Shown in pieces: positions 4,570 through 40,681 of a stretch of DNA of 43,102 nt. The notes beneath the pieces were generated by a model. It saw nothing but the letters and a program-made list of their open reading frames with translations, made no database searches and had not been told where the DNA came from. The translations under genes were made by a program, and so were the position numbers. Position 1 is the stretch's first letter. Each line of letters begins with the position of its first letter. Origin of the DNA: Candidatus Nanohaloarchaea archaeon (GTDB lineage: Archaea > Nanohalarchaeota > Nanosalinia > Nanosalinales > Nanosalinaceae); NCBI GenBank assembly GCA_041640075.1, contig JBEQAY010000001.1, forward strand, positions 14,845-57,946, in the 5' to 3' direction.

Positions 4570-6309
4570 TTACCACTCCTTTCTGAGGATTACTGCCGAG
4601 ATAAGGAGGCCCAGGATTACTGAGATTGCCAGTTTTGTGATGTCTCCCAGTGCCTGGATTGAGGTTACTGCCTGATTGAACATTCCTGTGATTCCTCCGC
4701 TCCTGTCCTTCAGAGAGTCCCTGACTTCTTCTCCTAACCTGAGCTGTACGGTCTCTTCCTCTTCTACCATCTCTCCTGATGCACGGACTGTGATGTCCTC
4801 TGTTCCTTCTACCTGGTCGTAAGGGATCCCTGCGTAGATGTAGGACTTCCCTGTTTCTCCGGAGTCAACGTTAACTACTTCTGGCCTGATTGAGATCCAG
4901 TCAGGTCCTTCACCACTTACCCTGTACTCGTTCTTCATTGTTCCTGTGTTTTCAAGGTGGATCTCGTAGAGCACGCTTCTGTTCTCTCCTGCGCTCTGGA
5001 TGTTCGGCACAACATCCATGTCGAGGTTGTAGCAGTCCTCTACAGTGAAGCTTGAGGTTGCTGTCTTGCTTGGTTCAGCGAACGTGTCGGACTGTACATC
5101 GACTTCTACGTTGTATGAATCTCCTACAGTGTACTCTGAGGAGTTGAAGTCGATCTCAAGCCTTCTTGTTTCGCCCGGATCAAGTTCTACAGATTCCTCC
5201 GAGATGCTTCCTCTGGAACTGGAGACGCTGTAAGTATCTGATGCCTCTCCTGTGTTCTCTACTGTGACCTGCTTCTCGAATCTCTCGTCTTCACATACGT
5301 TCTGTGAACCGCTTTCGAAGTTCACTGATACATCCTGACCGTTGTAAATATCTAGCTGGGCACTTGCAGAGCTGGTTGATTCTCCTTCTGCTGTAACCCT
5401 GATTGTTCTATCCTGAAGCTGTTCAGGCGTGTACTCCACAGTAGTTGTTCGTGAGTCTCCTGCAGCGATGTCAAGTTCTGTGTCCTCAAGCTCTCCGTAG
5501 TTTGTGGAGAGTGTGAAGCTGTCGGATCTTGTTCCCTGGTTCTGTACTGTGACATCGAACTCTGCTTCTGTCAGTGCTGCTGATCTCTGGTTTTCAGGGC
5601 TTATTGTGGTGCTTGACTCGTAGCAGTTCTCTGCCTCGAAAGATGTTGAGGTGACGTCTTCTGCGTAGCTGGAAGTAGATTCTGCTTTGATGTTGAAGGA
5701 GCGGTCGTTTACCGCAATTCCTGAAGATCTTGTTAGCTCAACTGTTTCTGTCTCTCCTTTATCAACTCTAACTTCTTTCTGTGAGAAATCTCCTGCATCA
5801 GCACTCATCCTGAAAACTTCTTCCTGAGTACCTGAATTACTTACAAAAACTGTGTAAACTGCTTCTTCGCCCCGGCAAACAGATCCAGGGTTTTCAACTT
5901 CTATATCAACGTTATGATCTCTTATTACTTCTACTGTTCCTTCTGTACTGTACGTCTCCTCTGTAGCCTGTGACTCTGCATCTATCCTGAAGGTGTACTG
6001 TCCTTCCTGTCTGTCAAGGTTCGGGTTGAACCATACCTGAACTGTCTGTGACTCTCCAGGCTCCAGATTTCCTTCTTCAGGGACCTGGCCTGGTGCGACT
6101 CTTATTTCGTCAGAATGTGTGGATGAAATATCGTATATGTCTTCAACTGTACCCGTATTAGTTATTTCTACCTCATAGGAAGTGAAAGAATCTACTTTAA
6201 CAGATGAATGGTCTGGAAAAATATCAAGATCTGCTGTACTTGCTGCTGCAAGATTAAGGGTTAGTAATGCTGCAATTGTAATTATACCAATTTTGTGAAG
6301 CCGTGTCAC
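4570..6309 (-). CDS. Surface protein with ~5 Ig-like (CARDB/NEW3, COG1470-like) domains and a C-terminal TM anchor
   Basis: Signal peptide; repeated V-x-V-x-N-x-G-x3-D-x-Y motifs; VC...CY Cys pairs; C-terminal TM plus RKEW; GTG start with SD AGGTGA. Confidence 0.85.
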   Translation of the reverse strand: MTRLHKIGIITIAALLTLNLAAASTADLDIFPDHSSVKVDSFTSYEVEITNTGTVEDIYDISSTHSDEIRVAPGQVPEEGNLEPGESQTVQVWFNPNLDRQEGQYTFRIDAESQATEETYSTEGTVEVIRDHNVDIEVENPGSVCRGEEAVYTVFVSNSGTQEEVFRMSADAGDFSQKEVRVDKGETETVELTRSSGIAVNDRSFNIKAESTSSYAEDVTSTSFEAENCYESSTTISPENQRSAALTEAEFDVTVQNQGTRSDSFTLSTNYGELEDTELDIAAGDSRTTTVEYTPEQLQDRTIRVTAEGESTSSASAQLDIYNGQDVSVNFESGSQNVCEDERFEKQVTVENTGEASDTYSVSSSRGSISEESVELDPGETRRLEIDFNSSEYTVGDSYNVEVDVQSDTFAEPSKTATSSFTVEDCYNLDMDVVPNIQSAGENRSVLYEIHLENTGTMKNEYRVSGEGPDWISIRPEVVNVDSGETGKSYIYAGIPYDQVEGTEDITVRASGEMVEEEETVQLRLGEEVRDSLKDRSGGITGMFNQAVTSIQALGDITKLAISVILGLLISAVILRKEW

Positions 6310-27211: not shown

Positions 27212-27267
27212 AAATAGCATATTTGCTTGAGGTCGAGAAAACTCGTTCGAGTTTTCGACCCTCGGCA
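27205..27267. repeat. Double-hairpin insert flanked by the 8-bp direct repeat CCTCGGCA (tRNA 5' end)
   Basis: Repeat copies at 27205-27212 and 27260-27267; hairpins at 27210-27226 and 27237-27256. Confidence 0.75.
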
Positions 27268-27351
27268 TACTATCTATGTAGAAAAGTCTTCGATACACTT
27301 TTTTATTTGGGTCTGTAACTTAATCAGATTCAATCCTTGAGTTTGATTCCA

Positions 27352-34606: not shown

Positions 34607-34996
34607 CTAGTAGACGTATCCGAGGAGTTTTCCTCCGATCTGTTCTTCTCGGGCCTCGTCATGAGTCATGACTCCCTGAGGGGTTGTTACGATAAGCTTT
34701 CCGAATCCCTGCGCTGGCAGGTATCTTCGAGCCCATTTTGCGTACTCGTTATTGCTCATCGAGAACCTTGGCTTGATCGACTGGCATTCGTTGATCGTTT
34801 CCTTGACTTCAACCTTGAACTTGCCTCCTTTACCGTCCTCGACAAGTTCAAAGACTCCGATGTATCCCTGCTGCTGTAGCTCGATAAGCACGTTCTTTAC
34901 CAGATTGCTGGTAGGTGAGATCGTTGCGTAATCGTTACCTGATCTCGCTGCATTGTTTATTGACGAAAGTGCATCGCTCAGTGTATCTTGTGACAT
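34607..34996 (-). CDS. rps8: 30S ribosomal protein uS8
   Basis: GYIGVFE, IKPRF, YLPA, TTPQGVMTH and GGKLLGYVY motifs. Confidence 0.97.
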   Translation of the reverse strand: MSQDTLSDALSSINNAARSGNDYATISPTSNLVKNVLIELQQQGYIGVFELVEDGKGGKFKVEVKETINECQSIKPRFSMSNNEYAKWARRYLPAQGFGKLIVTTPQGVMTHDEAREEQIGGKLLGYVY

Positions 34997-36412: not shown

Positions 36413-37231
36413 TCAATCCTCCTTCTGATTCTCCAGGTATTCGATCATGGTTTTACGGTCCTTGTTGGACTTCTCGGCCTGGATAAGTGCGTCAAAGTCA
36501 GGGCTCTCCATCTCGGAGATCTGATCCTTCGCATCGCCGATTGTCCCGCCTACAACGTCACTGTAGTCGGAACTTTCCTCTGAAGCTTCCTCATCCGTCT
36601 CCTCGTCAGAGGTATCGGTTTCAGAAGACTCTTTGTCTTCGGATTCGGCGTCTTCAACGATTTCTTCCTCGTCAACTTCTTCCTCGATCTGTTCTTTGAC
36701 TTCTTCGATCTCTTCTTCGTCCATATCCTCGAACTGTTCGTGGGCTCCTGACTGTCCGCCCTGCATCTGCTGCATCATCTCTTCCTCTTCGTCTTCTTCG
36801 AGTGCTTCTTCGACTTCTTCGTCGTCTACCTTGATGGATTCGAAGTCTGAAATATCGTACTTGTCCAGTCTGTCCTCTTCTGAAAGGTTAAGGCTCTGGA
36901 TCTGTACGTTTGATGGTCTGAGAGGGATCTGATGTACTGTACCGTCGACGGCTTCTTTTTCTACTCCGTCGATGTAGATCCTCTCGTTTTCTCTGTCAAT
37001 ATTGTTTACGATTCCCTCTGCTCCTTTCCTGTCTCCACGCATTACTTTAACTCGGTCTCCGTTCCTGATTCCGATGTTGCGTGTTCCTAGTTCGTCTCTG
37101 AGGTTGTGTGAAAGGTTTGCTGAGATGAAATTATCTTTTACGTGCTGTGGAGCGTTTTCTCTGTACTTTCTCTGCTTCTGAGGATCTGTGCTTGATTTCC
37201 AGCTTCTGCTCCAGTTTTCTGTCTGCTTCAT
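36413..37231 (-). CDS. rpl24: 50S ribosomal protein uL24 with a long acidic C-terminal extension
   Basis: PQKQRKY, GDRVKVMRG KOW motif and PSNV; then ~150 extra residues. Confidence 0.95.
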   Translation of the reverse strand: MKQTENWSRSWKSSTDPQKQRKYRENAPQHVKDNFISANLSHNLRDELGTRNIGIRNGDRVKVMRGDRKGAEGIVNNIDRENERIYIDGVEKEAVDGTVHQIPLRPSNVQIQSLNLSEEDRLDKYDISDFESIKVDDEEVEEALEEDEEEEMMQQMQGGQSGAHEQFEDMDEEEIEEVKEQIEEEVDEEEIVEDAESEDKESSETDTSDEETDEEASEESSDYSDVVGGTIGDAKDQISEMESPDFDALIQAEKSNKDRKTMIEYLENQKED

Positions 37232-37644: not shown

Positions 37645-37950
37645 TCATTCCTCGTCTACTTCGATTTCTTCGTCGTCATCGAAAACCTTCATGATGACGT
37701 GGCTCTTGGTTTTTGAGATAGGTCGTGTCTCTCCCACTTTAACCTGATCGCCTTCCTCAAGTTCGACGTCTTCAGGTACGTGGACTGAGATCTTAGTATT
37801 TCTTCTTTCATATCTTTCGAACTTTGGAACTTTCTCAGCGTACTCCCATCTTACGGTTGCTGACTTGTCCATTTTTGTGGATACGACTCTTCCAACGAAA
37901 GTTCCTCCTCTGATCGGGTATTCTGTTTCAATTTCGGATTCTGCACTCAT
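37645..37950 (-). CDS. rps17: 30S ribosomal protein uS17
   Basis: GRVVSTKMDKS, KFERYERR and GETRPISKTK motifs; SD GAGGTGA. Confidence 0.97.
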   Translation of the reverse strand: MSAESEIETEYPIRGGTFVGRVVSTKMDKSATVRWEYAEKVPKFERYERRNTKISVHVPEDVELEEGDQVKVGETRPISKTKSHVIMKVFDDDEEIEVDEE

Positions 37951-37976
37951 TATCTTGGTTCACCTCTAAACAAACT

Positions 37977-38089
37977 TCTCCGCCAGAACTTCAAAGGGAA
38001 TAGACTATGCACTCTACAAAAGTGATTTTTCCATTCACCCCCGAAAGTATCGGTCGCCCGACTTCCAGCGGAAATGACACTCGCGTGTC
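37977..38089 (-). ncRNA. Candidate structured 5' leader RNA of rps17 and the downstream operon
   Basis: Two GCGA-tetraloop hairpins, a 12-bp closing stem and a long interrupted hairpin, folded by eye; G-U pairs work only on the minus strand. Confidence 0.65.
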
Positions 38090-38112
38090 GTAACATCAAA
38101 AGACAAACTAAA

Positions 38113-38122
38113 CCTTAAAAAG
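38113..38122 (-). promoter_or_regulatory. TATA box (TTTTTAAG) for an internal promoter upstream of the rps17 leader
   Basis: About 25 nt upstream of the first leader hairpin. Confidence 0.55.
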
Positions 38123-38142: not shown

Positions 38143-38427
38143 TCAGTCAAAATCTTCCCAGTTACTTGGTATTTTCATGTCTATACGGTCTTCAGGACGC
38201 TTGGCGATAGTTTTCCCGTTGAGTTCGACTTTTTCTCCTGAAGGTATCTCTATCAGGAATGTGCAGTTCTCTTTTTCGATCTGTTTACCGTCGATTGTGA
38301 GTGTGTCCCGTGTTTCGTCCAGGATCTCGCCCTTGATCCCTTCCTGTGTCGGGTCAGTTGACTCTATTATCTCTGCTTCCAGTCCGATGAGTTCGTGGCG
38401 TGGCAGGTTTTCCGGTGTGATAGGCAT
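38143..38427 (-). CDS. rnp1: Ribonuclease P protein component 1 (Rpp29/POP4)
   Basis: HELIGL, GxILDETRDTL and GxxIAKRPEDR motifs; canonical position before rps17. Confidence 0.95.
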   Translation of the reverse strand: MPITPENLPRHELIGLEAEIIESTDPTQEGIKGEILDETRDTLTIDGKQIEKENCTFLIEIPSGEKVELNGKTIAKRPEDRIDMKIPSNWEDFD

Positions 38428-39613: not shown

Positions 39614-40681
39614 TTAACCTTCAACTCTGGTTTCAAGCCAGTCTGTGAAGGTTGTACGGTTTTTGTCGTTTTCTTCTGCTTCGAGAAGTGCCTCGTAGTC
39701 CGGATTATCCAGATCTTCTATTGCGTCTTTAGCATCGCTGATTGTTCCGGATACAATTTCCTCGTACTCTGCCTCTGCTCCTTCACTTTCTTCAGCTTGT
39801 TCTGTATCCTCTACAGGAGGTTCTTCATCAGCTTTGGATTCGTCTTCCTGTTCTTCCTCTGGTTCTTCACTTACTGCTTCTTCTTCGTCTTCAGTTTCTT
39901 CTTTGGATTCGAAGGCGTCTCTTACTTCGTCTACCTCGATGTCTGAGGTTTCGATTGTTTCTCCTCTTTCTTCAATTGCTCTTTCGATTTCACCTGAAGT
40001 CATGTTGTCTGCTTCTTCTATGACGTCTTCAATCCTGGTTGATTTCTCTGCTGCGTCTTCGTCAACCTGTGTCTCGTGGAAGATTTCCTTTTGTACGTCT
40101 TCGATCTTTCTGTGCTGGAACTCTGGAAGTGAGTCCATGATTCGGACTTTGACTCCGATTGCTCCAGGCTTTGTACGTGCAAGTTCGTATGCCTTTGAGA
40201 CGTTGTCTTTTGATGTGTTTCCACATCTCTTTACGTATCCGAATGAGAATTTTTCTGTTCGTCCACGGTTTCCGGAGAGCTTTCCTGTGATCTCTACTTC
40301 TGCTCCGATTACTCCTGCTTCCTTCATTCTGCGGATGTAAGTGTATCCTACTCTTTTGGCGTGACCGCCTTTTTGAAGCCAGTCGGCGATGCTTTTTGCA
40401 ACGACTTTTGCGTTGGCGTCTCCTTCCTCGATCTCGTTGACCTCGATCTGAGGGTTTTCAAGATCGAATGCTTCTTCCATGTCTTCTGTTAGTTCGTTGA
40501 TACGTGATCCTCCACGTCCGATGACCAGTCCTGGTCTCTGTGCGTGGATCACTACTTTTGTGCTTGTAGGTGTACGCACGATATCTGAGTGGCTGTAGCC
40601 TGCTCCTTCAAGTTCCTCTTCTAGGAACTCGTCAAGTCTTACCTTGCGTGCGCCTTTCTGTATGAATTGTTTTTCTTTCAT
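39614..40681 (-). CDS. rps3: 30S ribosomal protein uS3 with a long acidic C-terminal extension
   Basis: RPGLVIGRGG KH motif, GAEVEITGKL and GAIGVKVRIM; then ~165 extra residues. Confidence 0.96.
   Translation of the reverse strand: MKEKQFIQKGARKVRLDEFLEEELEGAGYSHSDIVRTPTSTKVVIHAQRPGLVIGRGGSRINELTEDMEEAFDLENPQIEVNEIEEGDANAKVVAKSIADWLQKGGHAKRVGYTYIRRMKEAGVIGAEVEITGKLSGNRGRTEKFSFGYVKRCGNTSKDNVSKAYELARTKPGAIGVKVRIMDSLPEFQHRKIEDVQKEIFHETQVDEDAAEKSTRIEDVIEEADNMTSGEIERAIEERGETIETSDIEVDEVRDAFESKEETEDEEEAVSEEPEEEQEDESKADEEPPVEDTEQAEESEGAEAEYEEIVSGTISDAKDAIEDLDNPDYEALLEAEENDKNRTTFTDWLETRVEG

Follow-up and report, generated by a model that had tools for sequence, protein, structure and literature searches.

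A predicted uS8-sensing leader RNA ahead of the rps17-secY operon in a family of nanohaloarchaea

Introduction

Autoregulation by ribosomal protein uS8 is reported for Escherichia coli and Vibrio cholerae in the available text of PMC10931766 and PMC3616713. According to the same parts of these sources, the E. coli operator overlaps the start of rplE, the third gene of the spc operon, whose core reads L14-L24-L5-S14-S8-L6-L18-S5-L30-L15-secY (PMC3616713). The accessible part of PMC4176348 describes the uS8 site as two base triples, G597-C643.U641 and A595.(A596-U644), with A642 as the only conserved base contact and position 641 variable among natural uS8 sites. Outside Gammaproteobacteria, the regulation of spc-type operons is stated to be unknown (PMC10931766, available text). 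In yeast, RPS22B (uS8) is autoregulated through a conserved bulged stem in an intron in the 5' part of its own transcript; the control acts on the splicing of one gene, and the authors could not align the stem to the bacterial sites (available part of PMC13232506).

Lineage-restricted structured RNAs before ribosomal protein genes, several of them mimicking rRNA, are described for Archaea in the accessible text of PMC7247131 and PMC10931766: L1 (Methanococcus), L4-Archaeoglobi, eL15-Euryarchaeota, S15-Halobacteria, and S15-Methanomicrobia. In the literature surveyed, as far as its available text goes, L1 is the only archaeal ribosomal protein autoregulator that has been tested, and the four further leaders are predictions. 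Within these same texts, none of the leaders has uS8 as its ligand, precedes rps17, or belongs to the lineage studied here, and the available supplements of PMC7247131 contain no 'Nanohalo' entry. The five nanohaloarchaeal ncRNAs in Table S3 of PMC10266531, in the available version, lack the core described below on either strand, as judged by eye. The literature searched (titles and abstract openings, with subscription journals thinly covered) yielded no description of an archaeal uS8 leader, and the leader reported here is apparently undescribed so far.

Results

Setting and fold of the element

The window is a stretch of 43,102 nucleotides from contig JBEQAY010000001.1 (assembly GCA_041640075.1) of a Candidatus Nanohaloarchaea archaeon with a genome of 0.98 Mb. 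Its minus strand carries a ribosomal protein cluster, in which Pfam matches give the order sui1, GNAT acetyltransferase, rnp1, then rps17-L14-L24-S4e-L5-S14-S8-L6-L32e-L19e-L18-S5-L30-L15-secY. From rps17 to rps8 the genes are packed, with gaps of at most 14 nt, and the gene of the predicted ligand is inside the operon behind the leader. The 192-nt gap between rnp1 and rps17 was described as exceptional in an earlier note on this DNA; none of the 22 gaps counted from rps3 to a methyltransferase gene is longer, and the second longest measures 82 nt. The features of this gap and its neighbors are collected in Table 1. The uS8 of this genome is ordinary, and its closest solved structure is the M. 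jannaschii S8 in 1I6U (E 4e-36). Two other proteins of the cluster, uL24 (272 aa) and uS3 (355 aa), have long acidic C-terminal extensions with similar ends of about 45 residues (window 36413-36830 and 39614-40100).

Table 1. Positions of the leader's parts and of the genes around it.
Feature	Position in window	Strand	Remarks
rnp1 (RNase P subunit p29)	38143..38427	-	Pfam PF01868; upstream neighbor, outside the leader's control
TATA box of promoter P1, TTTTTAAG	38114..38121	-	conserved family-wide ahead of the element
TAC initiator-like motif	38090..38092	-	24 nt after the TATA A; probable start at about 38091-38089
5' hairpin GACAC-GCGA-GUGUC	38076..38089	-	variable; missing from many relatives
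Conserved strand CCGCUGG	38065..38071	-	partner is either the strand that follows the uS8 core or a far 3' strand (helix P1)
5' half of uS8-site mimic, AAGUCG	38059..38064	-	corresponds to 16S 595-600 (E. coli numbering)
Hairpin cap G-GCGA-C	38053..38058	-	length 6-15 nt (short members) or 32-50 nt, with a UUGU loop (long members)
3' half of uS8-site mimic, CGAUACU	38046..38052	-	corresponds to 16S 638-644; U641/A642 bulge
Lower stem strand UUC	38043..38045	-	covaries with 38064-38066
Second conserved motif GAAAAAUC	38024..38031	-	consensus RAAAAYC; 39/40 members
P3, long interrupted hairpin	37989..38047	-	sequence variable; in competition with the uS8 lower stem at its base
Helix P1, 3' strand UUCUGGCGGAGA	37977..37988	-	5' partner 38063-38074
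Shine-Dalgarno (SD) GAGGUGA of rps17	37960..37966	-	complementary to the 16S 3' end GAUCACCUCC
rps17 (uS17)	37645..37950	-	Pfam PF00366; first gene after the leader; ATG at 37950
rps8 (uS8)	34607..34996	-	Pfam PF00410; predicted ligand; seventh gene of the rps17-secY run

The earlier note had proposed, from the letters alone, a candidate ribosomal leader RNA in this gap. The sequences that it named (TATA box, hairpin, P1, P2, P3, SD, and ATG) were all recovered on the minus strand where it had placed them, and its fold, drawn by eye, is exactly the minimum-energy structure in ViennaRNA. The structure stands out on the mRNA strand only: positions 37977-38090 of the minus strand fold at -49.5 kcal/mol (z -6.0, 0/200 shuffles), compared with z -1.6 (12/200 shuffles) for the plus strand. 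With flanks added, the z values are -2.7 and -1.2, respectively. The GNRA loops to which the note had drawn attention are not conserved across members and were rejected as functional features. The element is single-copy in the genome by BLAST, and a search of the window region against Rfam 15 returned no match to E 10 and no family near threshold, as the reading of a new leader would have it. The loci of eight relatives gave one unrelated chance match only (E 0.61).

Distribution among relatives

We found rps17 in 42 of the 50 genomes of the family and inspected the upstream sequence in each of the 42. Three of these regions are cut by contig ends, among them that of G004, which shows the 3' half of the element. 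Of the 39 genomes in which the region upstream of rps17 is intact, 36 have the element; these come from 17 genera. A scan of metagenomes returned only four close loci, two of them identical; one identical contig was dropped. The working set of 40 thus comprises the 36 family members, a second copy on contig C53 of the same assembly, and three metagenome contigs.

The three family genomes in which the element is absent (G016, G018, and G006) manage without it, which counts against a uS8 leader; G006 retains both promoters and a decayed relic. None of the genomes without the element has it relocated near the operon, and the loose search pattern occurs at chance level throughout these genomes. 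The interval from rnp1 to rps17 is without the core in all 18 genomes of three sister families, and in 17 of them the two genes nearly abut. In one sister-family genome (G054, locus L145), unrelated hairpins take up about 150 nt of this gap, without the uS8 core.

A covariance model found one strong match per genome, always before rps17. Among 20 genomes of other families it found nothing better than E 0.02; these blanks are weak, since the model with its fast filters missed all four genus g20 genomes of its own training set. The structure is real and conserved within the family.

The second copy lies on contig C53 (1408-1941, locus L164) and precedes a second rps17 that is 60% identical to the first; its own long-form leader nearly matches the leaders of genus g6. 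C53 is probably a contaminating contig in the assembly. Unrelated genes have often been inserted between rnp1 and the leader promoter (L002, L005, L009, L016, and others), or rnp1 lies elsewhere; this break in the operon is an insertion hot spot.

Match to 16S rRNA helix 21

The invariant core of the leaders reads RAGUCG...CGAUACU. Helix 21 (h21) of this genome's 16S rRNA reads AAGUCC...GGAUACU, and all 18 16S rRNAs of the family have AAGUCY..GGAUACU there. The uS8 site in h21, as seen in the M. jannaschii S8-rRNA complex (PDB 1I6U), has the same AAGUC/GAUACU core and the same U641-A642 bulge. Positions A596, U598, C599, G639, A640, A642, C643, and U644 are found in 40/40 leaders and G597 in 34/40, an invariance that is partly built in, because members were recognized by a pattern fixing most core letters; the unbiased count is the 36 of 39 regions. 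Position 641 varies (U in 35 leaders, A in 3, G in 1, C in 1).

The earlier note had left the ligand open between uS17, uS8, and another product of the operon, and had named 16S helices h11 and h20-22 for comparison. When this genome's 16S, 23S, and two 5S rRNAs were searched with a two-strand structural pattern of the core, only h21 matched. The exact match singles out uS8; nothing points toward uS17 or h11, whose mimicry was rejected on the same pattern. The pattern occurs at 23 places in 1.96 Mnt, in 14 of 8000 shuffled gaps, and in 23 of the 40 leaders. Its strict form retrieves only the two rps17 leaders genome-wide, and a looser form all 40 leaders, compared with 2 of 86 distant upstream regions (94 offered).

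The leader departs from h21 in several ways. Its lower stem and distal sequence are different, and h21 is not scored by the leader covariance model. Position 595 is Watson-Crick paired with 645 in 34/40 leaders, whereas it is bulged in rRNA for a base triple; at the level of base pairing, these 34 leaders are without the bulged 595 that makes the A595-(A596-U644) triple of the spc-type S8 operator. The pair 600-638 is flipped: every leader has G-C there, and all 18 rRNAs have Y-G. Genera g19 and g21 have C597 opposite C643, which arose in two separate events on the tree. The uS8 proteins of these genera have no change in common, and the contact regions VTT[PS]xG and GG[KQR]LL are kept, so a co-evolution of C597 with uS8 was rejected. 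As features of the sequences, the paired 595, the flipped 600-638, and C597 count against a plain copy of rRNA. In genus g19 (L234-L236), whose leader has C597, uS8 is unusually diverged (59-62% identity to that of this genome), and uS17 is among the closest (71-76%).

Covariation and folding energetics

In the 40-row alignment, 91.7% of the cells of the uS8-type hairpin are paired, and 10 of its 16 pairs have two-sided changes. None of 500 shuffles reached this fraction of paired cells, and slid controls gave 33-52%. RNAalifold recovers the same stem unaided. Pair 595:645 is A-U in 15/40 and G-C in 19/40 members. On a FastTree phylogeny of five concatenated proteins, this distribution amounts to about three compensated switches and two mismatches, and the support from covariation should thus be counted as few events, not 40. 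The covariation that the earlier note had looked to in the relatives' upstream regions is therefore present, on few events of the tree.

The note had also drawn a three-way junction. Its helix P1 is borne out in the 17 short-class members (genus g19 omitted), where 93% of the cells are paired and six of eight pairs covary. A strong far 3' partner, one that beats at least 49 of 50 shuffles, is present in 17/40 members only, and a universal junction was rejected. The junction thus belongs to a sub-lineage, and the uS8 hairpin is the general feature. The G-U pair closing P2 is present in this genome; among the short class, G597-U641 is kept in only 9/17, compared with G597-C643 in 13. Similarly, the base of P2 and P3 as the note had drawn it belongs to the minimum-energy fold here, but the conserved register differs, and the register of the note breaks the uS8 site. 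In long members, a helix of 6 bp capped by a UUGU loop covaries, and the h21-like arm spans 40-50 nt, compared with 38 in 16S rRNA.

Helix P1 and the lower stem of the uS8 site have four nucleotides in common and thus compete. The median cost of forcing the uS8 site is 0.45 kcal/mol in the nascent leader but reaches 4.6 once the leader is complete (4.5 for this genome); the cost for h21 itself is 2.8. Since the site is cheap in the nascent RNA and costly in the full leader, these calculations predict early folding of the site and its later invasion. The SD lies about 85 nt from the uS8-site mimic. With the site forced, SD accessibility in this genome is unchanged under constrained folding (0.64 compared with 0.64), and among 19 members a change above 0.1 was found in one, toward opening. 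A simple switch by SD sequestration is therefore not supported.

Second conserved motif

The motif RAAAAYC, found in 39/40 members, ends 26-39 nt after the start of CGAUACU; some members have it in a stem, others in a loop. For 3 of 17 family rRNAs there is a likeness to 16S h26a, which may be chance, because the A-rich motif also matches a 23S site and one 5S rRNA. The conserved CCGCYUG strand resembles 16S 879-885. uS8 also contacts 16S h25, close by h26a and 879-885. The best matches in rRNA are weak and several, and an rRNA source for the second motif was not adopted.

Promoters and transcription

A YAC trinucleotide lies at +23 to +28 after the TATA box of promoter P1 in 33/40 rows (two being unusable at contig ends), compared with 98 of 739 TTTAAR sites genome-wide. 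The spacing between TATA and initiator is that of both 5S genes. Since the initiator stands at this forward spacing, an antisense reading of promoter P1 was rejected. The two 5S rRNA genes (C13, 8991-9107; C12, 26364-26481) are different from one another, have a TATA box each, and lie apart from the 16S (C11) and 23S (C9) genes.

A second TATA box lies behind the RNA in 21/40 members, with a YAC in 14 of the 21. The second promoter goes with the form of the leader: 19 long members have it, 17 short members are without it, and four are discordant. No second promoter was found in 19/40 members, this genome included, and the operon mRNA should therefore start at promoter P1 in these. Lineages have kept both promoters, the first only (as in this genome), or no element (G018 and G016). 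As each arrangement is able to serve the operon, transcripts from promoter P1 would be operon mRNAs. In the available part of supplement 3 of PMC10266531, a named nanohaloarchaeon has 151 RPKM for a GNAT gene before rps17 and 3299 for rps17, a jump that would fit a fresh start at rps17 in that strain.

Discussion

We read the element as a uS8-sensing autoregulatory leader of the rps17-secY operon, with a probability of about 0.72. The comparison with rRNA, the covariation, the position ahead of an operon that encodes the ligand, and the blank Rfam search agree with the ribosomal leader that the earlier note had suspected. Because the leader copies the docking site of uS8 in rRNA, spare uS8 likely binds it and lowers the output of its own operon. 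The leader would be the 5' end of the operon mRNA. In the nascent RNA the h21-like site would form first, and the 3' strands made later would partly invade it unless uS8 is bound. Surplus uS8, beyond what new 16S rRNA takes up, would trap the h21-like fold, and the trapped fold would lower output from rps17 to secY. The regulated step is the weakest link of this scheme; a block of rps17 initiation with polarity down the translationally coupled operon is the most likely, and early termination is the alternative. Transcripts from the second promoter, in the 21 members that have it, would escape this control.

The leader has in common with the E. coli spc operator the predicted ligand, the operon core (PMC3616713, available text), and an h21-type core with a conserved bulged A, whose A642 equivalent is invariant here, and a variable distal stem (accessible parts of PMC3616713 and PMC4176348). 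In E. coli the site is at the start of the third gene; the leader here is untranslated and stands before the first gene, 2.2 kb upstream of rpl5, with no overlap with the rplE (uL5) start. Its strands follow the order of h21, whereas those of the spc site appear to have the opposite order, going by the published numbering with bulged A8 and A9 on the 5' side. There is no Rfam or sequence link between the two, and the extra motif and the second promoter have no counterpart in E. coli. The best reading is that the leader, with its other place and probably other strand order, is independent of the spc operator. Unlike the yeast RPS22B stem, it aligns to h21 letter for letter.

An unlikely variant is an attenuator or interference device, in which uS8 would capture the nascent h21 fold with the help of a second rRNA-like patch (AAAAYC and CCGCY) and so decide between termination of promoter P1 transcripts and read-through that occludes the second promoter. 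This would be an archaeal circuit built from a composite rRNA mimic, with the patch resembling 16S h26a and 879-885.

We likewise consider improbable an independent small RNA, transcribed from promoter P1 over about 110-170 nt to a 3' end close to the second promoter. It would act as a decoy or store for uS8, or on the downstream promoter through read-through interference, with the operon under its own promoter. The second TATA and initiator that go with the long form would suit such an RNA, as would the operons of G016 and G018, which run without the element, and the lack of a predicted SD switch. However, 19 of the 40 members, the window included, are without a second promoter and have the SD about 10-20 nt after helix P1. 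The single copy per genome, always before rps17 and with no strong score elsewhere, also speaks against it, and no conserved U-tract terminator was seen.

The leader might instead sense another product of the operon (uS17, eS4, or uS5) or a pair such as uS8 and a neighbor, with AAAAYC, the CCGCY strand, and the UUGU loop as a second site. The near-constant spacing of AAAAYC in 39/40 members, the likeness of the two motifs to h26a and 879-885, the C at position 597 in two genera, and the pair G600-C638, which is conserved yet not rRNA-like, would be in keeping with this. We nevertheless regard it as quite improbable, given that the A-rich motif has further, perhaps chance, matches in 23S and 5S rRNA, that the two-strand core matches h21 and not h11, and that A642 and C643 are invariant.

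A shrunken RNase P RNA, another missing housekeeping RNA beside rnp1, or a palindromic insertion element at a gene junction is very improbable: the element does adjoin rnp1, and AAG-U-CG and CG-CUU could, by eye, form a P4-like helix in about 15/40 members, but the housekeeping reading is excluded, since this genome encodes RNase P RNA, SRP RNA, and two 5S rRNAs at other loci; the invariant letters of the element are those of the uS8 core with no Rfam match to E 10, and a single-copy element with one strong model match per genome is not a dispersed palindromic repeat or MITE. The RNase P RNA of this genome lies on contig C9 (about 5780-6215), just downstream of the 23S gene, and the archaeal RNase P RNA was accordingly rejected as an identity for the element. 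That RNA is divergent and long, scoring 38 bits where the gathering score is 84, and most family members score under the cut-off. Recurring palindromic hairpins, some common to several contigs, lie at window positions 27212-27270 and immediately upstream of tRNA genes on C3, C8, C11, C23, and C47.

The reading specifies a predicted ligand and particular bases for mutation, which makes binding to the leader directly testable in vitro. The natural variants (presence or absence of the second promoter, long or short arm, C597, and loss of the element) offer built-in controls for a study of regulation by archaeal leaders. If the uS8-sensing leader is borne out, feedback by uS8 would exist in all three domains through independent RNA inventions, and cells with 1-Mb genomes, whose sister families have rnp1 abutting rps17, would have gained such control, not lost it.
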